From contig CAWIKF010000002.1 in the NCBI GenBank assembly GCA_963836755.1, positions 1,696,001 to 1,760,000 on the forward strand: DNA of 64,000 nucleotides, read 5' to 3'. The notes below the pieces were generated by a model, which was not told where the DNA came from, ran no database searches, and worked only from the letters and a program-made list of their open reading frames with translations. A program made the position numbers and the translations under genes. Positions 2,816 to 32,329 of this stretch are shown here, in pieces. Origin of the DNA: an uncultured Verrucomicrobiae bacterium (lineage in GTDB: Bacteria; Verrucomicrobiota; Verrucomicrobiia; Chthoniobacterales; Chthoniobacteraceae). Numbering within the stretch: the stretch's first letter is position 1; each line of letters begins with the position of its first letter.

Positions 2816-3586
2816 TTAGCTCATGCTCTTATCCGGCGGCAGGCCGAGGCGGGTGCGTAGCGAAGCATTGGCGGAGTCGGAGTAGGGGCGCTCGGCGTCC
2901 ACCGCGAGCTGGAGTTTGCGGCGGCGGCGGCTGATTTGATCGCAGGCATCCGCGAAGGTTTGGCGGTTTTGGCTCGCTTTGCTTTGCGCGCCGCTTTGCG
3001 TGGTCTGGATGCCGGCGTAGCTGCCGAGATCGGTCTCCAGTTGCTCGATTTTCGGCTGATCGAAGCCGGGGAGGGTATCCTGCGGGGTGATGACGTTCCC
3101 CGCATCGTCGCGGGTGCGCAGGAGGGTAAAGACGGCGGTGCCGGCGGCGGTGATCTGGACGCGGGAGCCGAGGGGCTGGCCGACGTAATAGGCGGCGAGC
3201 CGTGCGGAATCGGTCTCCTCGTATTTTTCCTTCGCGCGGGCCTGGACGCTGCGAATGGCGGCGATGGCGGTGGCCTGGTCGCCGCCTTCCGTGCCGGTGA
3301 CCGTGTGAAAAGTGGCGGTGGCGCTGGTGGCGTTCGCGGCGAGGTGCCCGGCGTCGGTGGCCTGCACGGAGAGTGCCTGGAGGCTGGCGAGGGTGATGGG
3401 GACGGTGTTGTCGCGGTCGATGAAATGGGTGGCGAGCTCGGCGGCGAGGGCGGTATCGGTGCCGATTTCATCGACGGCAGAGCTGATGATTTCCGTGTCG
3501 GTCTCAAGCTGCTGGAGAAGCCGGCCATCGATGGGGCCACGGGGTTTGCGAGTTTTCGGGGTGGGAGCGGGTGTTGGATCAGCCAT
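2816..3586 (-). CDS. Uncharacterised helical protein of repeat-array module 1 (256 aa)
   Basis: Clean ORF with a Pro/Thr-rich N-terminus (MADPTPAPTPKTRKPRGPID) and Ala-rich amphipathic segments. No recognisable catalytic motif. Confidence 0.8.
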   Translation of the reverse strand: MADPTPAPTPKTRKPRGPIDGRLLQQLETDTEIISSAVDEIGTDTALAAELATHFIDRDNTVPITLASLQALSVQATDAGHLAANATSATATFHTVTGTEGGDQATAIAAIRSVQARAKEKYEETDSARLAAYYVGQPLGSRVQITAAGTAVFTLLRTRDDAGNVITPQDTLPGFDQPKIEQLETDLGSYAGIQTTQSGAQSKASQNRQTFADACDQISRRRRKLQLAVDAERPYSDSANASLRTRLGLPPDKSMS

Positions 3587-3592
3587 GCGGCG

Positions 3593-3621
3593 AGAGTAAA
3601 CAGGAAGGCGAGTGCCGGAAA
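3593..3621 (-). promoter_or_regulatory. Putative sigma-70 promoter for the module-1 gene (probably leaderless)
   Basis: Minus strand reads TTTCCG-N17-TACTCT-N6-ATG. Confidence 0.4.
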
Positions 3622-3653
3622 GCTTTTTAAACCCGACTCATTCCAGCCCGAAT

Positions 3654-3880
3654 CCGATGTGAATATTTAGCGATCCGAGGCCGATACTTAGCGATCCGAG
3701 GTGAAGTTTTAGACTTTCGAGGTGAAGTTTTAACGATCCGAAGTGGATGTTTAAGGTTCCGAGGTGAATCGCCAGGCTCCAGAGGTGAAGTTTTAGCGAT
3801 CAAAGGTCGATCCTTAAGCCCGCGAGCTGGAGTTTTAGACTTTCGGGCTGCTGTCTTATCCTTCCGAGCTGAATCCTTAA
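3654..3880. repeat. Degenerate tandem array, 11 x 21 bp, consensus about CCGAGGTGAAGTTTTAGCGAT
   Basis: Units start at 3654, 3675, 3696, 3717, 3738, 3759, 3780, 3801, 3822, 3843 and 3864 with no indels. The last unit overlaps the hrpB stop codon. Confidence 0.92.
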
Positions 3881-6417
3881 CGCCACTCGTGCTTCGGGTA
3901 TTTGCGCTGAAGCTCGATTTTCAACTTCGGGTAGCTCTCGCGCCAGAAGGTGCTGAGGTTTTGCGTGACTTGAATGGGGCGATGGTTCGGGGCGAGGACC
4001 TGGATGACCAATTCGACGCGGCCGGAGGCGATGGTGAGCGCGCCTTCGACGCCGTAAAGTTCCTGGATGCGCGCGGCGACGGTCGGCGCGGCTTTGGCGT
4101 CGTAGAGGATTTTCCACTTTTTGCCGTTCGGCAATGCGATGCGCTCGGGCGCGAACTTTTCCACGAGCTGCTGCTGCGCGGGCGAGAGCCAGCTTTTCAC
4201 GATCGGCAGGACGGGGCGGTCTTTGATCTCCTTGTAAATCATCGCGCCGTGGCAGATGTGCTCGATGACGGCGCGGCGCTCGTCGTCGCCGAATGCGGGG
4301 AGGGCGAGCTCGGGCATCCATTCGCGGAGGCGGTTGACGCGCGTGATCCATTGCTCGACGGCGGCGTCCCATTGCGTGAGGACGCAGGCGCCGTCGAGGA
4401 CGGCTTCGGCGAGGACGCGCGCTGCGGCGTCGGCGGGAACTTTTTCGGTGATTTGCGTGCCGAGGACGAGGTCGCGAAAGGCGGTGTGAGTGCGGGCGAT
4501 GACGCGGCGCTGGATGGGATCGTAGGCGACGTGGGTCTCGGTGCGGAAGGCGTCGGGGTAAAGTTCGCGCAGCCAGCTTTCGTCGATTGCGGTGGCCGTG
4601 TTGAGCAGCGTGGTGAGCTCGCCTTTGATCTCAATCTCGCGCACATCGCTGGCGACGAGGAGCGTGGCGTGCTGCACCACGCTTTCGCGCGCGAGCACGC
4701 CGCGCCGCGCATGGACGAGGTCGCAACGGAGCGTGCCGGCATCGATGCGCTTCGCCACTTGATCGGCGAAGCCGGCGAGGACGCAGCGCTGGATCGCCTC
4801 GTCGTTCGGTTCGCCGCGCTCGAGGTTGAGTTTTTCGGTGCGGGCGATTTTTAGAAACTGCTCGGCGATCTGCGCGGCCTCGCGCGCGGCGGGGCCGTTG
4901 ATGCCGAGCCGGCGGCAGCGTTGCGGGTTGTAATTGCTCTGCTCCGCGTAGCGAAAGGCGCGCATGAGGATGAAAAAATCCGACACTTCCTTCTCGCCGA
5001 GCACATCGGCGCGGTCCTGCGCCATTTGTTTGCCGTCGCTGCGGCGCATCAGGTTTCGCCCTTGTGAAAGCGCGGCGATGAGCGCGATGGCGCGCACGCA
5101 GCCTTGCGTGTCGGCCTCGATGAGCATGCGCGCGTAACGCGGATGCACCGGGAACGCGAGCATCCGGCGGCCGAGCGGCGTGATCGCGCGCGCTTTTTCA
5201 TCGAGCGCGCCAAGGTCTTTCAACAAAGTCTCCGCGCGTTCCAATGCGCGCGCATCGGGCGGCTCGAGCCAGCGGAAATTCGCGATGTCCTCGACGCCGC
5301 TCGCTTTCAAAGTCAGCACGACTTCCGACAAATCGAGCCGCTTCACCTCCGGCAATTCCTGCGCGAAACGCTCCAGATGTTCGCGCTCCGTCCATAGCCG
5401 CAGGCAATGTCCCGGCGCAGTCCGGCCGGCGCGGCCCGCACGCTGATCGGCACTGGCGCGCGAGATTTTTTCGACGAGCAACGTGTTGATCCCGCGATGC
5501 GGATCGAACCGCGCGATGCGCGCGAGGCCACTGTCTATCACGGTTCGCACGCCCTCGATCGTCAGCGAAGTCTCCGCAACGTTGGTCGAGACGATGACTT
5601 TTCTTTTTTCGTAAAACGCGAGCGCGGCGTCCTGCTCGGCCACCGGCAATTCGCCGTGCAGCGGCAGCACGACAAACTCATCGCCGACGCGCGACGCGCG
5701 GATCGACTGGATCGTGCGGCTGATTTCGTAAGCGCCCGGCATGAAGACCAGCACGTCGCCATCGGTCTCGCCGGCGATCCGCTCCAGCTCGTCGGCGGCG
5801 ACGTCCCAGACCGAATATTCGTCGGGGCGAAACGGCTTTGAGATGTGCTCGATCTCGACGGGAAACATCCGCCCGCTCGATTGCAGCATCGCGCACGGCG
5901 CGAGAAATTTCTCGAGCTGCCCGGCGTCGAGCGTCGCGGACATGACGATGATTTTCAGATCGGGCCGCCGCGTTTGCTGGAGATCGAGCGCGCGCGCCAG
6001 CGTGATGTCGCCATACAAATGCCGCTCGTGAAACTCGTCGAAAATGATCGCGCTCACGCCGGGCAAAAGCGGTTCCTGCACGAGTTGTCGCAGCAAAACT
6101 CCCTCCGTCACGAACCGAATCCGCGTCTCCTCCGACACGACGCGGTCGAACCGAATCTGATAGCCGACCTCACCGCCGAGCCGCACGCCGCGCTCCTCCG
6201 CGACCCGCGCCGCGAGCATCCGCGTCGCGAGACGGCGCGGCTGCAAAATCACGATCTCGCCATTGTTTAACAACCCGTGATCGAGCAGCATCTGCGGCAC
6301 CTGCGTCGATTTTCCAGAGCCGGTCGGTGCCTGCAAAATGAGCCGCGGATTTTGCGCGAGCGCATCGATGATCGCGCGCTCGAGTTCAAAGATCGGGAGG
6401 TCGCGCGGCGTAATCAT
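3877..6417 (-). CDS. hrpB: ATP-dependent helicase HrpB
   Basis: APTGSGKST, QPRRLA, DEFHER, MSAT, TNVAETSLT and QRAGRAGR motifs, plus the HrpB C-terminus FW..SY....ELQRKYPKH.W. Confidence 0.95.
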   Translation of the reverse strand: MITPRDLPIFELERAIIDALAQNPRLILQAPTGSGKSTQVPQMLLDHGLLNNGEIVILQPRRLATRMLAARVAEERGVRLGGEVGYQIRFDRVVSEETRIRFVTEGVLLRQLVQEPLLPGVSAIIFDEFHERHLYGDITLARALDLQQTRRPDLKIIVMSATLDAGQLEKFLAPCAMLQSSGRMFPVEIEHISKPFRPDEYSVWDVAADELERIAGETDGDVLVFMPGAYEISRTIQSIRASRVGDEFVVLPLHGELPVAEQDAALAFYEKRKVIVSTNVAETSLTIEGVRTVIDSGLARIARFDPHRGINTLLVEKISRASADQRAGRAGRTAPGHCLRLWTEREHLERFAQELPEVKRLDLSEVVLTLKASGVEDIANFRWLEPPDARALERAETLLKDLGALDEKARAITPLGRRMLAFPVHPRYARMLIEADTQGCVRAIALIAALSQGRNLMRRSDGKQMAQDRADVLGEKEVSDFFILMRAFRYAEQSNYNPQRCRRLGINGPAAREAAQIAEQFLKIARTEKLNLERGEPNDEAIQRCVLAGFADQVAKRIDAGTLRCDLVHARRGVLARESVVQHATLLVASDVREIEIKGELTTLLNTATAIDESWLRELYPDAFRTETHVAYDPIQRRVIARTHTAFRDLVLGTQITEKVPADAAARVLAEAVLDGACVLTQWDAAVEQWITRVNRLREWMPELALPAFGDDERRAVIEHICHGAMIYKEIKDRPVLPIVKSWLSPAQQQLVEKFAPERIALPNGKKWKILYDAKAAPTVAARIQELYGVEGALTIASGRVELVIQVLAPNHRPIQVTQNLSTFWRESYPKLKIELQRKYPKHEWR

Positions 6418-6510
6418 GGGCGGTCATCTTCACGCGCCGCCGCGCATTTGTCATCCTGAGCTTCGCGCGGGTGCGCAGACTTTTTCGCGATAAGTCAGAG
6501 CGCGATGGCG

Positions 6511-7506
6511 TCAATCTTCTTCCGGCCGCGGCTCGCGCGCAAGCAGCTCGATCATCGCATCGCGTGGCGGCTTGTTTTCAAAAATAATCGCGTGCACCTG
6601 CTCGATGATCGGCGCGCTCACGCCGAGACGCCGCGCGCATTCCAGCGCACTCTTCGCCGTCGGCACGCCCTCGGCAACCATCGCCATCGTCGCGCTGATT
6701 TGCTCGGGCTTTTCGCCGCGTCCGAGCCGTTCGCCTACTCCGCGATTGCGACTGTGCCGCGAAAAGCAGGTGACCATCAAATCGCCCACGCCGCTCAGGC
6801 CTTGAAAAGTTTCACGCCGTCCGCCGAGCGCTACGCCGAGCCGCATCAGCTCTGCGAGCGAGCGCGTGACGAGCGCCGCCTTCGAATTGTCGCCAAAGCC
6901 CAGTCCGTCGCTCAAGCCGGCGGCGATCGCGAACACATTTTTCAGCGCGCCGCCGAGCTCGATGCCGGCAATGTCGTCGCTCGTGTAAGCGCGAAAAGTT
7001 CCGCTCGAAAAAACCTGCTGCAGATTCTCACAGATGAAATGATCGCGCGCGCCGAGCACGACGGCGGTCGGCATTTTGCGCGCGACTTCTTCCGCGTGGC
7101 TCGGTCCGGAGAGCGCGACGATTGGGTTGCGCGGGAAAAACTCCGCGATGATTTCGCTCATCCGCAAGCCGCTCCGCTGCTCGATCCCTTTCGTGCAGGT
7201 CATCAAAATCACATCCGGTGAAACTTTTTCGCGCGCAAAAGTTTCCACGACCGACCGCATCGCCTTTGACGGCGGCACGAACAAAATCAAATCCGCCCCC
7301 GCAATTTCCGCGAGCGAATCGGTCGGTAAAATGTTTTCCGGCAAAGTCACGCCCGGCAAATACGGCTCGTTCGCGCGCGTCGTTTTCAGCCTTTCGACAT
7401 GAGCCGGATCGTAACCCCAGAGCGAGATCTCGCCGCCGCGCCGCGCGAGCAAAATGGCCAGCGCCGTGCCCCAGCCGCCAGCGCCGATGACAGCGACTTT
7501 GTTCAT
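6511..7506 (-). CDS. gpsA: NAD(P)H-dependent glycerol-3-phosphate dehydrogenase
   Basis: GAGGWGTALA, KGIE, SGPSHA, GALKNV and GDLMVTCFS.HSRNR motifs. Start taken at MNKVAV, overlapping the plsY stop. Confidence 0.95.
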   Translation of the reverse strand: MNKVAVIGAGGWGTALAILLARRGGEISLWGYDPAHVERLKTTRANEPYLPGVTLPENILPTDSLAEIAGADLILFVPPSKAMRSVVETFAREKVSPDVILMTCTKGIEQRSGLRMSEIIAEFFPRNPIVALSGPSHAEEVARKMPTAVVLGARDHFICENLQQVFSSGTFRAYTSDDIAGIELGGALKNVFAIAAGLSDGLGFGDNSKAALVTRSLAELMRLGVALGGRRETFQGLSGVGDLMVTCFSRHSRNRGVGERLGRGEKPEQISATMAMVAEGVPTAKSALECARRLGVSAPIIEQVHAIIFENKPPRDAMIELLAREPRPEED

Positions 7507-8129
7507 TTCTTCACAAAGCGCGGCTCCGTGCCCTTGAGCAGGCGTCCGATGTTTGAGCGATGCCGCCAAACCGCGAGCAGCGAGACGACGAGCGCGAAAT
7601 AAAAGAACGGCCAGCCGCCGCTTTTCCAGACGAAGATCAACTCGCCAAGCACGATCAACGGCAGCGCCAGCGCGGCGCAGATCGAGGCGAGCGAAACGTA
7701 GCGCGTGGTGAAAAAGACCGCGCTCCAGACCAGCGCGATCCCGAGAGCTGCGACTGGCAGAAATCCGATGAGCACGCCGGCGGAAGTCGCGATTCCTTTG
7801 CCGCCCTTGAAGCCGAGCCAGATCGGAAAACTATGCCCGAGCAGACAGCAAATCCCCGCCATGATTCCCGCGGCGGCGAGCGGAATCTGCTGTCCTTGCG
7901 CTGCGAGATCGATCGCTAAACGGACGGCGATGAGGCCTTTCAAAGCATCGCCGATGAAGACGGGAATCCCGAACTTTTTACCGAGCACGCGCAGCACATT
8001 TGTCGCGCCGATGTTGCCGCTTCCATGCTCGCGGATGTCGATGCCGCGGGCTTTCCCGACCAGAAAGCCGAACGGAATCGAGCCGAGGAGATAACTCAAG
8101 AAGCAGATTTTTCCGCCAGCGAAAAACAT
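7503..8129 (-). CDS. plsY: Glycerol-3-phosphate acyltransferase PlsY
   Basis: YLLGSIPFG, DIREHGSGNIGATN, GH.FPI...FKGGKG and RHRSNI.RL motifs. Confidence 0.95.
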   Translation of the reverse strand: MFFAGGKICFLSYLLGSIPFGFLVGKARGIDIREHGSGNIGATNVLRVLGKKFGIPVFIGDALKGLIAVRLAIDLAAQGQQIPLAAAGIMAGICCLLGHSFPIWLGFKGGKGIATSAGVLIGFLPVAALGIALVWSAVFFTTRYVSLASICAALALPLIVLGELIFVWKSGGWPFFYFALVVSLLAVWRHRSNIGRLLKGTEPRFVKK

Positions 8130-8175
8130 CGCGCCGATCCTGCTGCAACTCCGCCCGACGCGCGAACGAAAAACG

Positions 8176-9921
8176 CTACCGCTTTGCGTGCAGCGCCCGC
8201 TCGACTTTCGCGAGCGGGAGGCAATTGATCACATCCTCGCGGGTGAGCCAGCCCTTGCGCGCTGCCGCGACGCCAAACCACAAATGCTGCAGCCGCGCGA
8301 TGTCGTGCGCGTCGGGATTGATCGCGCATTTCACGCCCTTCGATTTCGCCAGCGGCCACCAGCGCCAATCCATGTCGAGCCGCTTCGGATTCGCGTTGAG
8401 TTCGATGATCGTGCGCGTCGCCGCGGCGGCCTCGATCACCGCGGGAATGTCGACGGCGTAAGGCTCACGGCTCAAAAGCAACCGGCCGGTCACGTGGCCG
8501 AGCATTGTCACGTGCGGATGCGAAATCGCGCGGATGATCCGCTTCGTCATCTCCGCTTCGGGCAGATTGAAAACGGCGTGGACGGAGACGACGACGTAAT
8601 CCATCTGCGCCAGAATCTCGTCGGGAAAATCGAGCGAGCCGTCCTTCAAGATGTCGCACTCGACGCCGGCGAAGAGTCGGAAGCCGTCAAAACTTTTGTT
8701 TAACGCATCGATGTCGCGGCGTTGTTTTAACAATTGTTCCGCAGTCAACCCGTGCGCCTGGATCGAGCTTTTGGAATGATCCGCGATGCCGAGATATTCG
8801 AGCCCGAGATCCATCGCGCCGGCGGCCATCTGCTCGAGGGTGCAGCGGCCGTCGCTCGCGACCGTGTGGTTGTGAAAAGTGCCGCGCAGGTTTTCGAGCT
8901 TCACCAACTCCGGCAGCGCGTGCTTCTCCGCGGCGGCGAACTCGCCGAGATTTTCGCGCAGCTCCGGCTCGATGTATTCGAGCCCAAACGCCGCGTAGAG
9001 ATCGCGCTCCTCGCGGATCTTCGGCAGAGGTCGTGGATTTTTGACTTTCGATTTCGGGTTCTCGACCGGCTCCGCCCGGTATTCGTTGAGCGTCCAGCCA
9101 TTCTTTAATGCGCGACTGCGCATCTCGATGTTGTGCTCTTTGCTGCCGGTGAAATAGTTCAGCGCGAAGGGAAACTGCTCGTCGGTGACGACCCGCAGAT
9201 CAGCTTGCACGCCGGTTTTGAGGCGGACGCTGGTTTTTGTCGGGCCTTGCACGATCACGTTTTCGACGGCGTCGTGCGCGATGAAATACTGCGTGACGTC
9301 GGCCGGATTTTTCGTCGAGACGATGAAGTCAAGGTCGTGGACGATTTCCTTGCGGCGGCGGAAACTTCCGGCGGCGCTGACTTGAATGACGTCGGGCTGC
9401 GCGCGCAAGTCGGCGACAATTTGCTCCGCGAGCGCTGCGACATCGCCGAGGCGGAAACTGCCGGCGTGGCTCGCGCGCGCGGCGATGGCTGCGGAAATGT
9501 TGCGCGCGGTTTTCTCGCCGAAGCCCGCGAGCTTCGCGATGCGGCCGTCGTCGCACGCGGCTTGCAACTCGGCGATCGACGAGATGCCGAGCTTCTCGTG
9601 CAGCGTCTTAATTTTCTTCGCGCCGACGCCTTGCAGGTCGAACAGCTCGAACAGCGTCGCGGGAAACTCCGCTTTCAGTTCCTCATAAAACGGGAGCGAG
9701 CCGGTGTTCACGAGCGTGGAAACTTTGACGGCAATCGCTTTGCCGATGCCGGGAATTTCCTCGAGCCGCGACTCGCGTGCCATTTGCATGAGATCGCCCG
9801 GGAACGTTTCCACGGCGCGCGCGCCATTCGTGTAGGCGCGGATTTTGAAAGGATTCTCGCCCTTGAGCTCGAGCAATTGCGCGATCGATTCGAGCACGTC
9901 GGCGATGTCGTCTTTGGTCAC
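8176..9921 (-). CDS. polX: DNA polymerase X / PHP exonuclease
   Basis: ENPFKIRAY, GSFRR...HDLD, DLR, FTGSKEHN and PHP motifs HNHT, DHS, NPDAH. GTG start inferred. Confidence 0.93.
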   Translation of the reverse strand: MTKDDIADVLESIAQLLELKGENPFKIRAYTNGARAVETFPGDLMQMARESRLEEIPGIGKAIAVKVSTLVNTGSLPFYEELKAEFPATLFELFDLQGVGAKKIKTLHEKLGISSIAELQAACDDGRIAKLAGFGEKTARNISAAIAARASHAGSFRLGDVAALAEQIVADLRAQPDVIQVSAAGSFRRRKEIVHDLDFIVSTKNPADVTQYFIAHDAVENVIVQGPTKTSVRLKTGVQADLRVVTDEQFPFALNYFTGSKEHNIEMRSRALKNGWTLNEYRAEPVENPKSKVKNPRPLPKIREERDLYAAFGLEYIEPELRENLGEFAAAEKHALPELVKLENLRGTFHNHTVASDGRCTLEQMAAGAMDLGLEYLGIADHSKSSIQAHGLTAEQLLKQRRDIDALNKSFDGFRLFAGVECDILKDGSLDFPDEILAQMDYVVVSVHAVFNLPEAEMTKRIIRAISHPHVTMLGHVTGRLLLSREPYAVDIPAVIEAAAATRTIIELNANPKRLDMDWRWWPLAKSKGVKCAINPDAHDIARLQHLWFGVAAARKGWLTREDVINCLPLAKVERALHAKR

Positions 9922-9966
9922 GCGCACACCTTTACGGCGCGCGCTCGCGTGCTGCAACCTTTCCGG

Positions 9967-11559
9967 CTAATGCCGCTGATCGACCTTCGCCGGCGGCGGC
10001 TGTTCCGGCGGCAGCGATGCCGCAAAAGTCTTCCAAGGCTGCGACTCGACTTTGAAAGCGTAGGCCATTTTGCACGGGCGCTTGCTTTCGTCCTGCAACT
10101 CCGCGGGCATCTCGATCGAAACTTTGTCGCCATCCTGATGCCATTGCAGATCGTGGTCGTAGCCGAGCATGCGGATCGCCGAGCCGGGCGCGGGCCGCAC
10201 CAGCGCGGTCTCCAATTTCTCCCCCGGCCATTTCATGCTGAGGATGTAGACAAACTTCTTGTCCTTCGAGCGGGTGAAGCGGAGATCGTCGCCGTCGTGA
10301 TACCGCAGATAAGCGCGCGTCGCGTAGATGCTTTCGCCGTTGACCTTCAGCCAATCGCCCGCGGTCTTGAGTTGCTCGACCGCCGTCGGCGAAAACTTCC
10401 CGTTGCCGTCGGGCCCGACCGCGACCATGAACGCGCCACCCTTCGCGACTGAATCGATGAGATTGCGCACGATCCATTCGCCGCCTTTGTAGTCCTTTGG
10501 ATCCGGATCAAAAGCGAACGACGTCGCCAGCGGATAGATCACGAACCACGGCATGTCCGTATTCTGCGTATCGCCGGGAACGAAACGCTCGGGAGTAAAG
10601 TAGTCGCCATAGTTCCCGATGCCGCGCGCGCGCAGCATCACATCCGGCTGAAGCTTCCGCAGCGCGAACAGCGTCGAGCGCAGCTCCGGCCAGACCTCTT
10701 TGCCCAGCCACATATCGAGGCAGAGCATGTCGATCTTCCCATACTTCGTCAGCAGCTCGGTCAATTGCGCCCGATGCCGCGCCATCATCCGCGCCCGCTC
10801 CTCCGCGGTGGGCGCGGGGGCATTCTCCATGATGAGACCTTTCGGATCGATGGTGCTCGCGCCCTCGACCGGACTTTTCGCCACATGCGCCGGATGATCC
10901 ACATAAGGGCGGAAGTCGGCGTCATACCAATCGGGATGGGAAAAGTAGAGATCAATGGCCAGCCCATACTTGCGGCCCGCGTCGCAGAGCTCCTTCACGA
11001 TATCGCGGTGAAACGGCGTCTCCATGATGCTGTAGGCCAGGTCGCAATCCTCCAGTTGCGGCCCGCCCGGCGCCGCCCAGTTCACCCGCTTCTTCACCCG
11101 CGTCGCAGTGTCAAACATCGAGAAACCCTCATGATGCTTCGCCGTGAATGCGAACATCTTCATCCCATCCTCGCGGAACATCTTCATCCAGTCATCCGCG
11201 TTGAAGCCGACCGGATTCCACGTTTTATACAGCTCATTATAAGCCGCCTTCTTCGCATACGGCATCTTCAGGAAAGGCCACGACGTATCCGTGATCTCCC
11301 AGATCGAATAAATCCCCCAGTGAATCCGCACCCCATACTTGAGGTCGCGGAACGCCTCGTAAGCCGCCGGCGACGCGTGGTGATAACCGCCGATCGGCAC
11401 CTCCTCCACATAACTCTTTGTCGACTTATACTGCGAATCGTCCTTTGGCAGCGTGATGTTCGGCGTCGGCAGCCCCGGCTCATGCCGCGCAGGCCCGGGT
11501 GAAGTCGCGACGAGAGAGAGCGACAGAGCCACCAGGAAAAACAGGGGTATATGCTTCAT
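9967..11559 (-). CDS. Alpha-L-fucosidase (GH29), signal peptide
   Basis: IHWGIY, KHHEGF, LYFSHPDW and LIDSVAKGG motifs. Hydrophobic N-terminus from MKHIPL. Confidence 0.88.
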   Translation of the reverse strand: MKHIPLFFLVALSLSLVATSPGPARHEPGLPTPNITLPKDDSQYKSTKSYVEEVPIGGYHHASPAAYEAFRDLKYGVRIHWGIYSIWEITDTSWPFLKMPYAKKAAYNELYKTWNPVGFNADDWMKMFREDGMKMFAFTAKHHEGFSMFDTATRVKKRVNWAAPGGPQLEDCDLAYSIMETPFHRDIVKELCDAGRKYGLAIDLYFSHPDWYDADFRPYVDHPAHVAKSPVEGASTIDPKGLIMENAPAPTAEERARMMARHRAQLTELLTKYGKIDMLCLDMWLGKEVWPELRSTLFALRKLQPDVMLRARGIGNYGDYFTPERFVPGDTQNTDMPWFVIYPLATSFAFDPDPKDYKGGEWIVRNLIDSVAKGGAFMVAVGPDGNGKFSPTAVEQLKTAGDWLKVNGESIYATRAYLRYHDGDDLRFTRSKDKKFVYILSMKWPGEKLETALVRPAPGSAIRMLGYDHDLQWHQDGDKVSIEMPAELQDESKRPCKMAYAFKVESQPWKTFAASLPPEQPPPAKVDQRH

Positions 11560-11709
11560 GGGGAGAGCAGGGAAACGAGCGGCGGGCATCCAAAACCATT
11601 CCGCATCCGCGCATCAAGAATTTTTTTTAACACAGCCAATCGGACCCAAGCTCGCGGATCAAAGTCCGGCCCCCACGCGCCGGCCTCCCGCGCACATGCC
11701 CGGCGAGCG

Positions 11710-11930
11710 CGAAAAGCCGCGCCGCCGCGAGATGCGTTGCGCGTCAAAGTTGAGCCGGTCTTGCCGCCGCCAGATCGCCTCCGCGCCAAATCTGAGCCGA
11801 TCTCACCGCCGCGAGATGCACTCCGCGTCAAAACTGAGCCGATCTCGCCGCCGCAAGATGCACTCCGCGCCAAAAATTAGCCGATCTCGCCGCCGCGAGA
11901 TGCATTCAACTGGCAGATTGAGCCGATTCC
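11710..11930. repeat. Tandem array, about 5 x 42 bp, consensus about GAGCCGATCTCGCCGCCGCGAGATGCACTCCGCGYCAAAWYT
   Basis: The (G/A)CCGCCGC anchor occurs at 11721, 11763, 11805, 11847 and 11889, an exact 42-bp spacing. Confidence 0.93.
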
Positions 11931-12005
11931 TCCCCGGTTTTTGGACATTCCGCCGGGCGCGGAGACCATAAAATGTCGCATTTTGGACAAAAGCCCGGTT
12001 TGCGC

Positions 12006-12034
12006 TTGTCATCGACCCGCGCTGCCCCTAGCAT
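12006..12034 (+). promoter_or_regulatory. Putative sigma-70 promoter for the module-2 gene
   Basis: TTGTCA-N17-TAGCAT, 30 bp upstream of ATG 12065, followed by an A/C-rich leader. Confidence 0.6.
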
Positions 12035-12064
12035 CGCGGCTCAATTCCAAACCCATCTAATAAC

Positions 12065-12790
12065 ATGCCCAAATACCAAGCACCCACCTCAGACGCCAGC
12101 CGCCTGAGCTTCCTCCAAACCGCCGTCAAAACCGCCACCGGCGCGGACGCGGGTAAAAATTACGTCACGGCCGCCACCATCACGGCGGTGCAGGCGTTCG
12201 TGCCGCAGTTCGCGCCCGCCGCGACGGGCATCGCGGGCCTGCTCGCCCACCGCGTGCAGGATGTGGCCCAGCGGGAAGCGGCGCGCGCAACGCTCGACAC
12301 CTGCCTCTCGGATTTCTGGGAAGTGCTCAAGCGCCGCGTCCATCGCAAGGGCGAACCCGCCGCCGTGCTCGCCTTTTATAAGCTGCCGGCCGATGGCTCG
12401 GTGCCCGCTGTGAACACCTTTGCCGACCTGACCACCATGGCCGCCGAAGTGATCGCCGGCGATGCGCAAGCCGTTGCCGCCGGTCATCCCGCGATGGCCA
12501 ATCCCGACGCCGCCGAGCTGCAAGCCGCGCTCACCGCCGCGAATGCCGTGGCCGGCAACGTGCCGACGAGCGACCGCGCCTATGACGACGCGCAAAAGGC
12601 GATCGCCGCGTTGCGCCCGCGCGCGGATGAATTGATCGGCGACGTGATGGACGATCTGCGCAATTCGCTGCGCAAGACCGATTACCCGAGCCAGCGCCGC
12701 GTGATGCGCACCTACGGCGCAACCTTTACTCCACTCCCCGGCGAACCCGCCGACCCGACGCCCGCGCCGGTGACACCGCCGTCGCCTTAA
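12065..12790 (+). CDS. Uncharacterised helical protein of repeat-array module 2 (241 aa)
   Basis: Clean ORF with Ala-rich helices, ending RRVMRTYGATF plus a Pro-rich tail PGEPADPTPAPVTPPSP. Confidence 0.85.
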   Translation: MPKYQAPTSDASRLSFLQTAVKTATGADAGKNYVTAATITAVQAFVPQFAPAATGIAGLLAHRVQDVAQREAARATLDTCLSDFWEVLKRRVHRKGEPAAVLAFYKLPADGSVPAVNTFADLTTMAAEVIAGDAQAVAAGHPAMANPDAAELQAALTAANAVAGNVPTSDRAYDDAQKAIAALRPRADELIGDVMDDLRNSLRKTDYPSQRRVMRTYGATFTPLPGEPADPTPAPVTPPSP

Positions 12791-12822
12791 AGCCACGACG
12801 CAAGCTGTTCCCCGCTTTTTCC

Positions 12823-14610
12823 ATGCGATGTTTTCCCGGCGTGATGGTGGCGGTTCTGCTCGTGGGGTGGCGTGCGACGGTGTCTTGGGGGCAGGTGGCT
12901 GCGGAGCGGCCGGCTTTGCTGGTGTCGCCTGTCGCGCCGGTGCGTTTTGAAACGCGCGGGGGCGTTTATTTTGCGGACTTCGGCTCGGATGCTTTCGGGA
13001 ATTTGCAGGTGACTTTTCCAGGCGATGTCCGCGCGGCGAAGGTGACGATCCGGCTGGGGGAAAAGTTGGGCGCGGATGGGCGGATCGACCGGAAGCCGCC
13101 GGGGAGCGTGAATTACTGCGAGGTGGTTTTGATGGCGCAGCCGGGGCTCTGTCGGACGCGCATCCCGCTGAAGAAGGGGGCGCAGAGCGGGCCGAACGCG
13201 GTGAAGGAGGCGGCGGGGATCGGGAATGTGACGCCGTTTCGCTACGCGGAGATCGAGGGGAGTCCGGTGGCGCTGGATGCGGGCGTGGTCCGGCAGTTGT
13301 GCGTGCATACGGCGTTCGATGACGGCGCGAGTGCGTTTACCAGCTCGGATCCGACGCTGAATGCGGTGTGGCTTTTGTGCAAGCATACGATGAAGGCGAC
13401 GACGGCATTCGGTGTGTATATCGACGGGGAGCGGGAGCGGCGTCCCTACGAGGCGGATGCTTATATCAATTTCCTCTCGCACATGGCGTGCGATTTTAAT
13501 CCCGAGGTGGGGCGTTACACGATCGAGTATTTGCTGGCGCACCCGACGTGGCCGACGGAGTGGAGTTTGCACATGCCGATGCTGGTGGCGGCGGAGTATG
13601 AGGCGACGGGGGACGCGGCGCTGGCGTCGCGCAATTATGATGCGCTGAAGGGAAAGCTGATGATGGAAAAAGCGCGGGAGGATGGGCTGCTGCGGGCATC
13701 GGCGATCGTGGATTGGCCGGCTGGCGAGCGGGATGGATACAATGGCGGGGTGGCCGATCCGGAGCAGAAGCAGGAAGTCGGGCCGATGATCAACACGGTG
13801 GCGAATGCGTTTTATTTCCGTGCCTTGAAGGAGATGGCGGTGCTCGCGCGCGCTTTGCGCAAGGAGGAGGATGCGCGGACTTTTGACGCGAAGGCGGCGC
13901 AGGTTTGCGAGCGGGTCAATGCGATCCTTTTCGACACGAAGCGCGGGCTTTACATCGATGGCGAAGGCTCGGGGCACTCATCGCTGCACGCGAATATGTT
14001 TCCGCTCGCGTTCGGCATGGTGCCGGCGGCGCGGGAAAAGCGAGTCACGGATTTCGTGCAATCGCGCGGGATGGCGTGTAGCGTCTATGGCGCGCAATAT
14101 CTGCTGGAAGCTCTCTACAAGGCGGGACGGGATGATGCCGCGCTGCAGTTGCTCACGTCGCGCGGGGAGCGGAGCTGGTGGAACATGATCGCGGCCGGCT
14201 CGACGATGACGATGGAGGCGTGGGACATGAAGTTGAAGCCGAACGCGACGTGGAACCACTCGTGGGGGGCGGCACCGGCGAATATCATCGCGCGCTATCT
14301 GGTGGGCGTGCGGCCATTGACGCCGGGCTACGGGAAAATCCTCATTGCGCCGCGGCCGGGGACATTGGAGTCATTCGAGGGGAAAGTGCCGACAGCGCGC
14401 GGGCCGGTGAACGTGGATTTCCAGAAGGCGAGGGGCCGTTATGAGATCGGGGTGCCGGAGGCAATTGCGGCGCGTGTGTCACTGCCGCGGGCAACTTTCA
14501 CCGGCAGGCAGGTTTTGATGGACAAGAAGATGGCAGCGTCCAGTGAGGATGGCGATGAATTGACCTTCGAGGACGTTGGGCCGGGGCGGCACGTGTTTAG
14601 GCAGGAGTAG
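12823..14610 (+). CDS. Alpha-L-rhamnosidase-like glycoside hydrolase (GH78)
   Basis: FRYAE, IDGE.RERRPYEAD, IVDWP, TMTMEAW and NHSWG motifs. N-terminal signal-like segment. Confidence 0.85.
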   Translation: MRCFPGVMVAVLLVGWRATVSWGQVAAERPALLVSPVAPVRFETRGGVYFADFGSDAFGNLQVTFPGDVRAAKVTIRLGEKLGADGRIDRKPPGSVNYCEVVLMAQPGLCRTRIPLKKGAQSGPNAVKEAAGIGNVTPFRYAEIEGSPVALDAGVVRQLCVHTAFDDGASAFTSSDPTLNAVWLLCKHTMKATTAFGVYIDGERERRPYEADAYINFLSHMACDFNPEVGRYTIEYLLAHPTWPTEWSLHMPMLVAAEYEATGDAALASRNYDALKGKLMMEKAREDGLLRASAIVDWPAGERDGYNGGVADPEQKQEVGPMINTVANAFYFRALKEMAVLARALRKEEDARTFDAKAAQVCERVNAILFDTKRGLYIDGEGSGHSSLHANMFPLAFGMVPAAREKRVTDFVQSRGMACSVYGAQYLLEALYKAGRDDAALQLLTSRGERSWWNMIAAGSTMTMEAWDMKLKPNATWNHSWGAAPANIIARYLVGVRPLTPGYGKILIAPRPGTLESFEGKVPTARGPVNVDFQKARGRYEIGVPEAIAARVSLPRATFTGRQVLMDKKMAASSEDGDELTFEDVGPGRHVFRQE

Positions 14611-14625
14611 CTGGCGTGTTTGCGG

Positions 14626-19592: not shown

Positions 19593-19635
19593 CTGACTTG
19601 CCCGCGGCTGAAAAGCGTCGCTCCGAGGAGAGACG

Positions 19636-21261: not shown

Positions 21262-21384
21262 AGCTTCATGCTCGCGCTTGATTCTTGCCGTGCCTGACGA
21301 ACACGGCTTTCCAACTCAGCAATCCTTTTGGGTAAATCCAACCGGTCAGGAATCTGTGTCATGTGCAGGACTAAACGTCGCGCA

Positions 21385-21528
21385 AATCCGACTTGGTCTT
21401 TCAAAGGTCTCGCGCAGATGCGCGAAGGATCGGGAGCTGCCGCTCTTCATCAACCGATACCAATGCTCCAACGCACTTCGCGGATGTTCTGCGGCGAAGT
21501 CGTTCAGCCGCTTGCGCATGATGTGCAT
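21385..21528 (-). pseudogene. higB: Truncated, frameshifted HigB-family toxin remnant
   Basis: MHIMRKRLNDFAAEHPRSALEHWYRLMK...SFAHLRETF resembles HigB N-termini. DQVG follows in a shifted frame. The C-terminal half and an antitoxin are absent. Confidence 0.7.
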
Positions 21529-21561
21529 TCGATGGATTCGAAGTCACACGGCTCAGCCCGA

Positions 21562-22263
21562 CTATGGTTTTGGTGGCGTGGTCGGCGGCTCGGGCTTCTT
21601 GCGCTGCGGGGCGCGCTCGATGTGGCTGGCGCTTTGCCACGCGCGGAGTTTGTCGGCGTTGCGCGCGTATTTGTTGTGGATGATGGCGTCGAGGTAGTTG
21701 ACTTCTTTCATCCCGGCTTTGATGAGGCGGCCGATTGCGGCGGTGCTTTCGACCCCTTCGCTGTCATCGCTCTCGTTGGCGTTCTGTTCGTTGCCGATGG
21801 CCTGGCGGTCGTCGGCGAGGTGGGTGACGAAATCGGCGGGAAGTTCGTGCGCTACGAATTTGGCGACGAGCGCGACCTTGGCGGCTTTTTGCGTGGCGGT
21901 GTCATTGTCGCCGGGTTGAAACTGAAGAAGATAAGCGTCGGCGGTGGTGAGGATACTTTCATGGCTCGGGCTCTCCGGCGGGCGGAAGTTGTCTGCGAAA
22001 CCGGGCTCGTCCTGCGCGATGGCGCGGGCGGTGCGGCCGATGTTTTGCAGGTCGAGGCGGAGGGAGTCGAAGAGGACTTCGAGGGCGGTGTTGCCGCCGC
22101 CTAGCTGCTTCGCTTTTTCGATGGCGAGGTCTTTGTGGATTTGGGCGACATTGGCAAAGCGTTTTTGCGCCTCGCCGCCGGCGGCAAAGTCCCCGGTGTT
22201 GTCGGTGCCAAAGGTTTCGACGCGGCCAAACATGTCATAACGGCGGGTTTCACGATCATTCAT
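21562..22263 (-). CDS. Uncharacterised helical protein of repeat-array module 3 (233 aa)
   Basis: Probable start MNDRETRRYDMF at 22263. Ends KLRAWQSASHIERAPQRKKPEPPTTPPKP. Confidence 0.85.
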   Translation of the reverse strand: MNDRETRRYDMFGRVETFGTDNTGDFAAGGEAQKRFANVAQIHKDLAIEKAKQLGGGNTALEVLFDSLRLDLQNIGRTARAIAQDEPGFADNFRPPESPSHESILTTADAYLLQFQPGDNDTATQKAAKVALVAKFVAHELPADFVTHLADDRQAIGNEQNANESDDSEGVESTAAIGRLIKAGMKEVNYLDAIIHNKYARNADKLRAWQSASHIERAPQRKKPEPPTTPPKP

Positions 22264-22399
22264 AAAGGCGATAGCTCGGTTGTTTTGTAAGGGTGAGACT
22301 GCCCGCAGAGCCTGTGAGCCCATGAAACAAACGTCGAGCGAAAAACAACACCTTTTTTACAGAACGTTGAGTTTTTCTTTGAGTGCGACGTGGCCAGGC

Positions 22400-22655
22400 G
22401 TGAATCGACACGCAAGTGCATCATTTACACGCCCGAAGGCTGGATTTACACGCTCCAAGGCTCAGCTCGCACGCTCCAAGGCTCGATTTACACGCGCGAA
22501 GATCTCAGCTCGCACGGGCTGCGACGAGGCTGACACAGCCCTGGCCCGGCATGCAAAGGTCTGAACTAAGCGCGCACACGCTTGGGATGATCTCGCACAC
22601 GAATACGGGGCGCTCGCAAGCGGCTGGAGGCATCGCGCAGGAGGCGGGAGTTCGG
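22400..22655. repeat. Degenerate tandem array, about 12 x 21 bp (core CACGCTCCAAGGCTCRRYTYR)
   Basis: CAC/CAA/CAG anchors at 22409, 22428, 22449, 22470, 22491, 22513, 22534, 22554, 22575, 22596, 22617 and 22638, mostly 21 bp apart. The array ends at the emrA stop codon. Confidence 0.8.
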
Positions 22656-24140
22656 TTACGGCTTCGGCGTGGCCGCCGCTGCGGGCTGGATGGTTTCCTG
22701 CAAAAATCTTCCGGCATTCGGGCCGGTCGGCTCGCTTTTGATATCGACGACCGGCTCGACGGAGAGGCCGACGAAAAGCGGACGCCGAATCGGATCGTAA
22801 TTCACCAGATCGATCCGCACCGGCAGGCGCTGCACGACTTTGACGAAGTTGCCGGTCGCGTTCTGCGCCGGGAGCAGCGCGAGCGTGGAGCCGGTGCCAA
22901 AGGTGAAGCCGGAGATGCGGCCCTCGAACTTTTGCCGGCTGCCATACATGTCGGTTTTTAACTCCACGCGCTGGCCGATGCGCAGGTCGCGGAGTTGCGT
23001 TTCCTTGAAATTCGCGTCAACCCAGATGTCGCGCAGTGAGCGGATCGCCATGAGGCTCTGGCCGATCTGGACGTTGTCGCCGGGGTTGACGTTGCGCCGC
23101 GTGATGACGCCATCGATCTCGGCGACGATTTTGCAATAGCGCAGGTCGAGTTGCGCCTGGTCGAGCGCGCGCTGCGCTTTCTCCACGCCGGCTTCGGCTT
23201 GTTTGAGCGCGGGCGCTTTTTTGATGATGCCGGCGTAAATTTTGTCGATGTCGCCGCCGGGATCGCGTTTGTAAAATTCCTGCACGACGGCTTTCGGCGT
23301 CAAATTGTAAGAGGAGGAAACGACGCCGAGCTGCGCCGCACTTTGCATCAACTCGCCGAGCGCCTCGCGAACTGCGGAAAAGTTCTGGTCGAGATCGGCG
23401 GGCACGTCGGTGAGGCTCTGGCCGGGCGCCGGCTCGGCTGGCAGGCCGAGTGAGACGCGCGCCTGGGCGACGCTTTCCAGCGCCTGGTTGACCTGCGCTT
23501 TCGCGACGTTGAGCGCCTCACTTTTTTGATCGAATTCCTCGGCGCTCGTCACTTTCGTCGCGAGCAACTTTTTCGCGCGATCAAACTCCGATTGCGCGAG
23601 CGCGAGCGTCGCCTTCGCCTGTTCCAAAGTAGCCGCACGCGCCCGCAGTAGCGCGACCTGGTTGTCCACATCCTCGATCGCGTGCTCGAGTTTAAAGCGC
23701 AGGCCGCGCGTCTGCCCGATCTGCGCGTGGACGTTGGCCTCGGCGACAACGAGGTCGGCATTCGCGGCATCGACCGCCGATTGCTGAATCGCGACCTGCA
23801 CGCGATACGGCTCGGGATCAAGCTCCACGAGCACATCGCCTTTTTTGACGCGATTGTTATCCTCGACCAAAACGCGCGCGACCTGCCCCGCGACGCGCGG
23901 CGCGACGAAGGTGACGTAGCTGTTTACATAAGCGTCGTCGGTCGAAACCGTGTGCAGCGAATGAATGACGCGCGGGACGGCGACGATCAGAATCAATATC
24001 GCCGCGACGATGAAAATGACGCGACGCCACGGATGCGTGGCTTTCGGTTGTTTTAGATCCGCTTGCGGCGTCGCGGCAGCGGGCGCGGGCGCATCCGGCG
24101 CGGTTTTACCGGTTTCGTCCGCTGGTTTCTCGGAGGCCAT
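22656..24140 (-). CDS. emrA: HlyD/EmrA family efflux periplasmic adaptor
   Basis: STDDAYV, V.DNNRVKKGDVL.ELD, ANFKETQL and LLPAQNATGNFVKVVQRLPVRI motifs. Confidence 0.92.
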   Translation of the reverse strand: MASEKPADETGKTAPDAPAPAAATPQADLKQPKATHPWRRVIFIVAAILILIVAVPRVIHSLHTVSTDDAYVNSYVTFVAPRVAGQVARVLVEDNNRVKKGDVLVELDPEPYRVQVAIQQSAVDAANADLVVAEANVHAQIGQTRGLRFKLEHAIEDVDNQVALLRARAATLEQAKATLALAQSEFDRAKKLLATKVTSAEEFDQKSEALNVAKAQVNQALESVAQARVSLGLPAEPAPGQSLTDVPADLDQNFSAVREALGELMQSAAQLGVVSSSYNLTPKAVVQEFYKRDPGGDIDKIYAGIIKKAPALKQAEAGVEKAQRALDQAQLDLRYCKIVAEIDGVITRRNVNPGDNVQIGQSLMAIRSLRDIWVDANFKETQLRDLRIGQRVELKTDMYGSRQKFEGRISGFTFGTGSTLALLPAQNATGNFVKVVQRLPVRIDLVNYDPIRRPLFVGLSVEPVVDIKSEPTGPNAGRFLQETIQPAAAATPKP

Positions 24141-30392: not shown

Positions 30393-31679
30393 ATGAACCA
30401 CACCCGTTCCCACGCCGCATTCGAGCGGGCGAGCAGGCGCATCCCCGGCGGCGTGAATTCCCCCGTGCGCGCCTTTCGCGGCGTCGGCGGCGAACCGTTC
30501 TTCATCGAGCGCGCGAGCGGCGCCCACATCTGGGACATCGACGGCAACGAATACATCGACTACGTCGGCACATGGGGCCCGGCCATTCTCGGCCACGCGC
30601 CCGCCGTCGTGCTCGATGCCATCAAGCAAACCGCCGACCGCGGCACCAGCTTCGGCATTCCGAACCCACTCGAGCTCGAAATGGCCGAGCTCATCTGCGA
30701 TTGGATGCCGTCCGTGGAAAAAGTTCGCATGGTCAATAGCGGCACCGAGGCCACCATGTCGTGCATCCGCCTCGCGCGCGGCTTCACCGGGCGCGACAAG
30801 ATCATCAAATTCGAAGGCTGCTACCACGGCCACGTCGACTCGCTTTTGGTCAAAGCCGGCAGCGGCGCGCTCACACACGGCGAGCCCGACAGCGCCGGAG
30901 TCCCCGCCGCGCTCGCTGATCTCACCATCACCCTCCCATTCAATGACGCGCAGGCGCTGCGCTCCGTCTTTCGGCACGAGGGGAGCAAAATCGCCGCCGT
31001 CATCCTCGAGCCGATCCCTGCCAATGCCGGGCTTTACTTCCCGCGCGACGGCTTCCTCGAGCTCCTCTGCCAGCTCTGCGCCGAGCACGACGCGCTGCTG
31101 ATTTTCGACGAAGTCATGACCGGCTTTCGCGTCGCACGCGGCGGCGCGCAATCGCTCTACGGCATCGTCCCCGACCTCACCGCGCTCGGGAAAATCATCG
31201 GCGGCGGCCTTCCCGTCGGCGCATTCGGCGGCCGCGCCGACATCATGGACCAGCTCTCGCCCGACGGCCCCGTCTATCAAGCGGGCACCCTCTCCGGCAA
31301 CCCGCTCGCCCTGGCCGCCGGCCTCGCGCAGCTCCGCGAGCTCGACCGCCTCGATGGCTGGAAAAAACTCGACGCCCTCGGCGAGACGCTCGAGTCCGCG
31401 ACGCGCGACGCTTTGAAAAAAGCGAGCCGCGACTACGTCTTCCACCGCATCGGCTCCATGTTTTGCCTCTTCTTCACCGACGGCCCCGTGCGCAACCTCC
31501 TCGACGCGCAGCGGAGCGACCGCGCAGCCTTTGCGATCTTTTTCCACGCCTGCCTCGAGCGCGGCATCTACTTTGCCCCGTCGCAATTCGAGACCGGCTT
31601 CCTCTCCCTCGCGCACAGCGGCGAAGACATCGCCCGCACCGCCAGGATCGTCGCCGAATCGCTCATCGCCCGCAGTTAA
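30393..31679 (+). CDS. hemL: Glutamate-1-semialdehyde 2,1-aminomutase
   Basis: PGGVNSPVRAF, VNSGTEA, GCYHGH, FDEVMTGFR, GKIIGGGLP and YQAGTLSGNP motifs. Confidence 0.97.
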   Translation: MNHTRSHAAFERASRRIPGGVNSPVRAFRGVGGEPFFIERASGAHIWDIDGNEYIDYVGTWGPAILGHAPAVVLDAIKQTADRGTSFGIPNPLELEMAELICDWMPSVEKVRMVNSGTEATMSCIRLARGFTGRDKIIKFEGCYHGHVDSLLVKAGSGALTHGEPDSAGVPAALADLTITLPFNDAQALRSVFRHEGSKIAAVILEPIPANAGLYFPRDGFLELLCQLCAEHDALLIFDEVMTGFRVARGGAQSLYGIVPDLTALGKIIGGGLPVGAFGGRADIMDQLSPDGPVYQAGTLSGNPLALAAGLAQLRELDRLDGWKKLDALGETLESATRDALKKASRDYVFHRIGSMFCLFFTDGPVRNLLDAQRSDRAAFAIFFHACLERGIYFAPSQFETGFLSLAHSGEDIARTARIVAESLIARS

Positions 31680-31929
31680 AAGTCGCGCGAAGCAAGCTCG
31701 ATCATCCTTGACGATGGCTTGCTGGAGGAATCACGAATAGCACAGCCTCACCTTCCGGATAACGCCTCTGGTAGCGTTCGGCGATGCCATCAAATCGGAT
31801 GGTGGTGTAGCCATTGGTGCCCGCGGTGGAGTCAACTTCGAAGCCGGTCGCGTGTGCAATCGCCCGAAGTAAATACCGAAAAGTGCATTGCCTTGGTCGC
31901 GGGCGATAACTGGCGATCCCGACCTTCCG

Positions 31930-32061
31930 TTAAGTTTTATGCAGGATTAATGGGAATTGGACGGTGGTGATTTCGGCAAGGTATTTTTTGTTGATGTCGC
32001 CGGGGGCCTGCCGCGTTTTGGCGGGGGTTTGGGCCGGAGTGGGTGCGGGTGTATCGGTCAT
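31930..32061 (-). pseudogene. Truncated paralog of the module-1 protein (module 4)
   Basis: MTDTPAPTPAQTPAKTRQAPGDINKKYLAEITT aligns by eye with MADPTPAPTP---KTRKPRGPIDGRLLQQLET. The ORF stops after 43 aa. Confidence 0.65.
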
Positions 32062-32119
32062 GGTAGGTTTGGCTGGGGTTGGCTGATTTCTTTGATTTTT
32101 GCTAATTTGCTGTCTGTTT

Positions 32120-32329
32120 TCTGCGGGCGTCAGGATCCTCGCTTCGGGTCGCGCGGTCTGGGCTTCCGGCTGCGATGTCTGCGCTTCCGGTCGCGAGGTT
32201 CGGGCTTTGCGTCGCGAGGTTCGCTCTTCGGGCTCCGAGGTTCGCGCTTCCGGCGGCGATGTTTGAAATGCGAGCGACGCCGTTCGCGCTTGCGGTGTTT
32301 GGCTTCGCGTCTTGGCCAGCGGGTGCCCG
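32120..32329. repeat. Degenerate tandem array, about 10 x 21 bp, consensus about GCTTCCGGTCGCGAGGTTCGC
   Basis: Units at 32120, 32141, 32162, 32183, 32204, 32225, 32246, 32267, 32288 and 32309. The minus strand reads as EARTSRP-like heptads. Confidence 0.88.

Follow-up and report, generated by a model that had tools for sequence, protein, structure and literature searches.

Tandem arrays of 21- and 42-bp period paired with genes for uncharacterised helical proteins: a candidate DNA-coating module in Verrucomicrobiae

In a 64-kb stretch of the genome of an uncultured Verrucomicrobiae bacterium (contig CAWIKF010000002.1, positions 1,696,001 to 1,760,000; hereafter the window), a two-part module recurs in which a degenerate tandem array stands upstream of a gene for an uncharacterised protein. 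A preliminary description, made from the sequence alone, had reported four such pairs and no similar arrays elsewhere in the window. All four arrays and their open reading frames are present, with limits refined below and genes of 256, 241 and 233 aa plus a 43-aa stub, and Tandem Repeats Finder (TRF) located these four arrays and no other of comparable score. The features are as follows, in window coordinates.

2816-3586, minus strand: gene 1 (product P0001), 256 aa, uncharacterised, Ala-rich; spacer to array 1 of 67 bp
3653-3886, minus strand: array 1, ~11 degenerate 21-bp units, not palindromic (z 0.8)
11721-11937, plus strand: array 2, a genuine 42-bp repeat (~5 units), imperfectly palindromic within the unit (z 3.5)
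12006-12034, plus strand: in the array 2-gene 2 spacer, a consensus-only match to a sigma-70-like promoter (TTGTCA, 17 nt, TAGCAT)
12065-12790, plus strand: gene 2 (P0002), 241 aa, nearly all-helical; spacer to array 2 of 128 bp
21262-22655, minus strand: ~1.4-kb insertion of array 3, gene 3 and ~300 bp more, splitting an emrA-emrB-like pair
21562-22263, minus strand: gene 3 (P0003), 233 aa, all-helical with a two-unit layout; spacer to array 3 of 145 bp
22408-22650, minus strand: array 3, ~11-12 degenerate 21-bp units, not palindromic (z 1.6), with the core GTG[CT]AA
31930-32061, minus strand: gene-1-family stub, 43 codons, N-terminus only; spacer to array 4 of ~59 bp
~32121-32330, minus strand: array 4, ~8-10 degenerate 21-bp units, not palindromic (z 0.9)

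The genes that neighbour these modules are housekeeping genes. The first in-register unit of array 1 begins where hrpB, the helicase gene upstream, has its stop codon, and array 3 starts 6 bp past the stop codon of the emrA-like gene. The unit sequences had been called divergent, and BLAST indeed detects no similarity among the four window arrays (0/6 pairs). The period had been given as 21 or 2 x 21 bp, which stands for the 21-bp arrays 1, 3 and 4 and fails for array 2, whose autocorrelation of 0.29 at lag 21 and 0.78 at lag 42 leaves no 21-bp sub-period. Similarity of the stub to the start of gene-1-family proteins scores 21.8 bits, in part owing to Pro/Thr low complexity, and array 4 has a weak relative in a solo array at C2:356031 in the genome of the window (G000, 3.18 Mb).

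Linkage between gene and array was tested with one score threshold over ~750 bp upstream of homologues in six families: P0001, P0002 and P0003, together with three FN3-bearing families from G000, namely FN3a, FN3b and a two-unit-plus-FN3 family. Loci from G000 itself were included. Dropped from the counts were L261 (genome G443), L198, L213 and L331 (off-target or duplicate), L201, L211 and L215 (no tblastn match) and loci with a flank shorter than 400 bp. An upstream array was detected at 133/202 homologue loci, against a downstream array at 12/195 loci and an array at 18/600 random G000 genes, so that the upstream-flank comparison proposed in the preliminary description came out in favour of linkage. 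By family, the counts were 43/76 loci for P0003, 17/22 for P0001, 9/16 for P0002 (every one with a period of 42 or 43) and 22/30, 24/31 and 18/27 for the three FN3-bearing families. The families are patchily distributed, often in several copies, with P0001 in 9/301 and P0002 in 5/301 genomes sampled from the class. The P0003 profile gathers 2435 clusters at 50% identity, and no P0003 relative was found in viral contigs among 177 pattern matches. For the window proteins, the closest named homologues lie in Chthoniobacterales and other Verrucomicrobia, more distant ones in Pyrinomonadaceae and Accumulibacter.

The proteins themselves offer few clues from known families. P0001, P0002 and P0003 have no match in Pfam, NCBIfam, PADLOC or PHROGs; the NCBIfam PQLLE family was rejected as a candidate, one member having matched it weakly and below the cut-off. 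AlphaFold2 models of P0003 and P0002 (mean pLDDT 90; pTM 0.52 and 0.71, respectively) are alike, with two tandem units of short helix, 53-60-residue helix and short helix, the long helix being broken mid-way in P0003. Foldseek returned 0 PDB matches at E 0.001 for either model, and none in viral models for P0002, whereas the best hits of a VIA fold search (Z 9.7 and 8.4) fall in the range of generic helical bundles. These searches of predicted structures show neither a new fold nor unrelated folds, and no catalytic fold or motif was found in them.

Homology among P0001, P0002 and P0003 is not established by sequence comparison. Profile-profile probabilities among the three are 0.3%, 4% and 18%; the best pair of their helical units reaches 25% (E 8e-4), which is weak, with reversed controls going as low as 0.017. 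Profile comparison also detected no internal duplication in any of the three. The two-unit-plus-FN3 family (330-346 aa) is internally duplicated, its halves matching at 94% (E 9e-8), and the duplicated unit is homologous to the single unit of FN3a (85%, E 7e-6); the FN3 domain that follows the helical units is common to both families (98%). Several of the invariant positions are Arg or Lys, often close to helix ends, including invariant Arg residues in P0002 and an invariant Arg cluster close to the C-terminus of P0001.

The geometry of the arrays parallels the architecture of the proteins. To score palindromy, each array was compared with column-permuted versions of itself; redundant arrays were removed, and arrays shorter than 100 bp or containing N excluded. 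FN3a arrays are palindromic in 12/19 cases and have a 20-22-bp sub-period in 17/19 (mean autocorrelation 0.59 and 0.65 at lags 21 and 42), and FN3b arrays in 15/17 and 17/17 (0.60 and 0.59). Palindromes are rare in the arrays of P0001 (2/13, with the sub-period in 13/13; 0.58 and 0.55) and P0003 (1/22, sub-period 20/22). The arrays of P0002 (palindromic 6/8, sub-period 1/8; 0.29 and 0.69) and of the two-unit-plus-FN3 family (11/15 and 0/15; 0.26 at lag 21 and 0.53-0.56 at lags 41-42) have long palindromic units. Proteins with one helical unit plus FN3 thus go with palindromic 21-mers, and proteins with two units with either asymmetric 21-22-mers or palindromic 41/42-mers.

One sum, arrived at post hoc on these six families, appears to fit them all: the period would equal ~10.5 bp times the number of helical units per chain, times 2 if the array is palindromic. 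For P0001 and FN3b the unit count entered is one that we infer, P0001 being taken as two units from its length and pattern. Where the protein unit is duplicated, as in the two-unit-plus-FN3 family relative to FN3a, the period is doubled also. Consistent with the rule, asymmetric 21-mers accompany three further G000 genes, two of them P0003-like and one encoding 317 aa. Array periods are solely 21-22 or 41-43 bp and multiples thereof. Within the P0003 family, the period (21 or 21.5-22) tracks protein clade, with nearest-neighbour agreement at 37/41 arrays against a mean of 20 and a maximum of 32 in shuffles, and the core GTG[CT]AA lies on the gene strand in 16/41 arrays, antisense in 0/41 and in 0/26 arrays of the other two families. 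A/T tracts stand above shuffles in 48/60 arrays.

These regularities speak against the notion that the arrays are functionless by-products, such as slippage scars or satellites that hitch-hike on mobile genes. Rapid sequence turnover, the many solo and broken copies and the 69/202 loci with no detected array would all suit such an origin, but each family keeps its period and symmetry although the unit sequences are unrelated, and where the protein unit is duplicated the period is twice as long; this account seems quite unlikely. Less plausible still is the proposal that the arrays are translated, as heptad peptides or upstream open reading frames that pair with or regulate a coiled-coil protein. 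Stop-free frames are slightly commoner on the sense than the antisense strand (1.13 vs 0.85, p 0.0015), chiefly in the FN3b and P0001 families, and four arrays are read in frame within host proteins. However, 31/128 periods are not multiples of 3, 33/128 arrays have no open sense frame, and palindromy is meaningless at the peptide level, which together make a peptide role very improbable. Duplex DNA is instead favoured by periods of 20.5-22 bp with no regard for the triplet code, by a two-fold symmetry tied to protein architecture and by the A/T tracts. Of the three roles offered in the preliminary description (phased DNA sites, a repeat RNA or a heptad-peptide template), phased DNA sites are the best fit.

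A census of the whole genome reveals that many arrays exist apart from any gene of these families. Genome-wide autocorrelation at lags 21/42 gave 62 array calls in G000 at a match fraction of 0.55, compared to 5-8 calls at the remaining pairs of triplet lags and none at non-triplet control lags. In all, 70 calls were considered, of which 5, two CheR coiled coils among them, were judged on inspection to be coding sequence or repeats of another kind and left out; the remaining 65 were sorted by hand using gene calls made for this analysis and profile searches. Intact uncharacterised genes adjoin 21 of the 65 (20 arrays upstream, 1 downstream), broken genes adjoin 9, and 31 are solo. The other 4 lie in frame inside host genes, which we take, from their translated sequences, to be ispG, alaS, a ribonucleotide reductase (RNR) gene and an RND efflux gene. 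A strict pairing of one protein with one array, as first supposed, is not supported by this count, with 35/65 arrays solo or in-gene and without an adjoining cognate gene, and with one array (88% identity) common to genes of two families.

Array length is nearly constant (quartiles 221-290 bp, 60 arrays). A relative among the gene-linked arrays was found for 19/35 solo or in-gene arrays; the best such pairs are 87-92% identical, and their homology is largely limited to the array. Solo arrays are marginally more homogeneous than the others (0.72 vs 0.64, p 0.057). Over 121 arrays from all families, homogeneity is slightly higher in the half nearer the gene than in the farther half (0.68 vs 0.66, p 0.004). 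Some arrays lie 3' of the gene, both in a 159-aa family (G000:C2:1046063-1046542 and C1:161195-161731; L242, L243) and at the P0003 homologues L022, L031 (Accumulibacter) and L042. The loci at G000:C1:273670 and C1:615852 have in common an array that is 88% identical plus ~300 bp of spacer, and their downstream genes come from different families, a sequence arrangement that suggests gene-array swapping.

Comparison with two congeneric genomes (G001 and G002) shows that the modules vary between lineages. The emrA- and emrB-like stop and start codons abut in G002, and in the window the pair is separated by 1.4 kb holding array 3 and gene 3. Neither congener has an array within the first ~850 bp past hrpB or after hemL, and the closest G001 homologue of gene 1 lies on another contig with its own array. 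Empty sites in G002 were also found for an ABC operon junction and the RNR loop, the array of the ispG loop is absent in both G001 and G002, and a 5.4-kb insert carries an FN3b module where a congener has an empty site. The empty-site check in close relatives and the enrichment upstream of homologues thus bear out the earlier view of a dispersed, lineage-variable two-part module. No target-site duplication is visible at a congener identity of only ~70-88%, which also blurs the junctions, and no window protein matches a transposase. DNA contigs aligned to 2800-22700 gave no informative junction; one near-identical contig spans 22120-22700 and may stem from the source sample. The ~300-bp end of the insertion at gene 3 (window 21262-21560, minus strand) may, judged by eye, be a broken HigB-type toxin-antitoxin remnant.

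The in-frame arrays lie in genes generally held to be essential, an argument that an array, or a seed of one, is able to reach a site independently of the gene. In alaS (G000:C1:58953-62516, L093), the in-frame 21-bp array is accompanied by short palindromic inserts, and the gene has an additional in-frame domain that presumably resembles an IS200/RAYT-type transposase. The same loop has a different heptad-like insert in G002 and an unrelated insert in G001.

Such observations raise the possibility that the arrays are generated or propagated by the protein, which would serve as a recombination scaffold or ruler, expand a seed to ~250 bp and seed copies in trans by a new mobility chemistry. This would accommodate the gene-linked relatives of solo and in-gene arrays with their array-confined homology, the near-constant array length, and the four in-frame arrays, absent as they are from ispG of both congeners and RNR of G002. 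It would also suit the finding that, across 80 P0003-family loci, no recurring transposase or integrase gene was seen nearby, any other neighbour being present at 3/80 or fewer. On the other hand, no catalytic fold or motif and no target-site duplication were seen in the searches above, solo arrays are barely more homogeneous, and ordinary slippage plus gene conversion could suffice. We give this proposal a small chance, noting that protein-driven synthesis or spread of arrays is compatible with array binding.

A role for a repeat RNA deserves about the same small weight. Here the array would be transcribed and its RNA would be the partner of the protein, as scaffold, guide, antitoxin or mobility intermediate, with the period as a footprint on RNA or an RNA duplex. 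The orientation of the array relative to the gene is fixed, array-only in-frame insertions suit an RNA intermediate, and read-through transcription is plausible from the position of array edges, with a host 3' end at most 60 bp away in 20/49 cases vs 9/73 for 5' ends, a comparison biased by the cognate genes' own spacers. Yet folding of the four window arrays does not exceed that of column-permuted controls (z -0.5 to 2.0), the window has no Rfam match, two families are non-palindromic, periods cluster at two and four turns of DNA, and array 2 lies upstream of the promoter-like site.

The reading that we prefer, with a probability of about 0.55 and partly by analogy to known systems, is that the cognate array, as duplex DNA, becomes coated with its protein, one unit to each turn, that the protein regulates its own gene, and that module and arrays spread selfishly. 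A rod-like helical protein would recognise, in duplex form, the array upstream of its own gene, and every helical unit of ~105 residues would span roughly one turn of the helix (10.3-11 bp). Proteins with one unit would act as homodimers on palindromic 21-mers, and those with two units either as monomers on asymmetric 21-22-mers or as homodimers on palindromic 41-42-mers. Copies would align on one face of the helix, coating 220-300 bp, and the coating would probably control the gene's own promoter. The module would insert intergenically, often right past a stop codon, and decay readily, and arrays would spread alone too. DNA binding, oligomeric state, autoregulation and mode of movement are all steps that we infer.

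Several observations weigh against this coating model. The initial prediction, that one-unit proteins would have palindromic arrays and two-unit proteins would not, failed for P0002 and the two-unit-plus-FN3 family; its rescue by a doubled period is what makes the rule post hoc. Within G000, the array of an FN3a gene at C2:1250097 has a 42-bp period and z 0.5, that of an FN3-like gene at C2:2229027 has z 0.8, a full-length FN3a gene at C1:551569 is without an array, and a gene-1-family member at C1:616393 and an FN3a fragment have an 88% identical array in common. No upstream array was detected at 69/202 loci. Shared motifs and periods could be inherited without recognition, and the sense-strand excess of open frames is unexpected for a pure DNA site. 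The proteins are net acidic (family median charge -1 to -6) and, apart from FN3-like matches, the module proteins match no Pfam, NCBIfam, PADLOC or PHROG family; DNA binding is presumed for them, and no known binding fold was recognised.

The module most likely works, by analogy, like the partition pairs ParR/parC and TubR/tubC, in which repeated dimers on upstream tandem repeats form a filament or superhelix and the promoter is repressed (PMC5016525). As in those pairs, the tandem repeats lie directly upstream of the gene. Unlike them, the module has no recurring gene for a motor NTPase (ParM, ParA or TubZ) among the neighbours of its P0003-family loci, its proteins are long-helix bundles with no ribbon-helix-helix or winged helix in the models and no Pfam match, and it is chromosomal, in dozens of diverged copies. 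DUF6261 (PF19775) is similar in size and helical nature and is a lead only. It is among the nearest named Atlas clusters of P0002 (0.87) and P0003 (0.89), where the family falls on 32% and 10% of members, respectively, and nothing in G000 matches it above the Pfam gathering score; the papers found to mention it appear unrelated.

Other repeat systems differ more clearly. REP/REPIN sequences with RAYT, BOX elements and Rickettsia palindromic elements occur as solo copies near gene ends and insert in frame into housekeeping proteins. The module departs from these in its fixed helical period, tandem arrangement, many unrelated sequence families and non-transposase partner gene. Clustered regularly interspaced short palindromic repeats (CRISPR), TIGR-Tas and type III toxin-antitoxin loci also place a repeat array beside a protein gene. 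The preliminary description had set aside CRISPR, insertion sequences and type III toxin-antitoxin systems. The results agree, less firmly so for insertion sequences: the module has head-to-tail degenerate units, no unique spacers, no Rfam match, and no cas, transposase or toxin-family match (23 window proteins scanned), and P0001-P0003 do not match ToxN, CptN, TenpN or Nop domains.

Candidate sites near the arrays were also recorded. In the spacer between array 2 and gene 2, 1 promoter-like match was found vs 0.1 expected; as a general spacer feature, a sigma-70 promoter was rejected, with 24 sense and 21 antisense matches in 128 spacers and no enrichment. Array 1 has an exact 16-mer (16/16 nt) in common with the coding strand of gene 1, and array 2 an 18/20-nt match to that of gene 2. 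Array-own-gene similarity was likewise rejected as a general feature (mean percentile 0.57 vs 0.54-0.55 for flanking DNA, 122 loci). A motif, (A)CAGAGTAA, stands at the edge of many arrays (e.g., C1:29995, C1:699276, C2:751975 and L178-L190), is not at the four window arrays, and occurs in only 5/133 upstream regions across all families. It abuts tmRNA or tRNA genes in L136, L147 and L149, and we take it to resemble an integration host factor (IHF) site. Sites of ACAGAGTAA fall at array edges for 13 distinct of 15 in G000 (14 rows, one site being double-counted) and for 11 of the 15 fetched (of 16) in G001 and G002. The edge motif TTACTCTG is doubtful as a -10 box, its spacing to a -35-like hexamer, where there is one, being 14-15 nt vs 16-17 genome-wide. 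In G008, ACAGAGTAAA has 49 copies vs 2 for the control (L151-L170, L129); of the sites fetched, roughly half fall within another short element, made of 10-11-bp AATTGG-type repeats, and none is beside a 21-bp array. A gene at G000:C2:765050-766000, presumably akin to integron integrases, ends 32 bp from the 41-bp array at C2:764656. A dispersed repeat of ~60 bp, possibly attC, lies near several arrays (C1:618000, C1:704000, C2:767000, C2:1267000-1283000, C2:1475000-1478000 and others).

The closest precedent is a published puzzle: many bacteria have tandem repeats whose sequence varies but whose unit stays at 20-21 nt, a length noted to equal two DNA turns, and Subirana and Messeguer postulate for them a protein whose polymerisation on DNA would require repeats of constant size (PMC8161180). 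The G000 arrays share the features given there: many unrelated families per genome, a fixed unit of 20-21 (and 40-41) nt, variable sequence and mostly non-coding location. That text concerns Bacillus and, in the portion accessible to us, names no protein or adjacent gene family; the accessible part of PMC6749651 holds nothing on gene-array pairing. A full-text search, whose reach left out most subscription papers, found no paper on such pairing or naming the postulated protein. The gene-array module is undescribed and has a testable geometric code and a proposed biochemistry; new here are the genome census, the solo and in-frame arrays, the empty sites and the period-symmetry rule.

The modules supply concrete candidates for the protein postulated in PMC8161180. 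Period and symmetry should be predictable from the number of protein units and the oligomeric state, and one genome offers ~20 intact pairs in which cognate and non-cognate binding might be compared. A bolder view, which we hold only tentatively and consider rather doubtful, is that these proteins form a class, widespread and so far undescribed, of DNA-coating proteins built from helical modules, with one unit per DNA turn, a dimer wherever there is a palindrome and an operator array of their own, which would drive array-only spread in trans, even in frame into essential genes, without a transposase. Such a class would account for the bacterial 21-nt repeats of constant length and provide orthogonal protein-DNA pairs as a ready-made natural library. 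If the modules indeed work by coating their arrays, they would represent a new way of reading DNA without a recognised fold, possibly a new kind of selfish element, and a source of the repeat insertions found in housekeeping enzymes.

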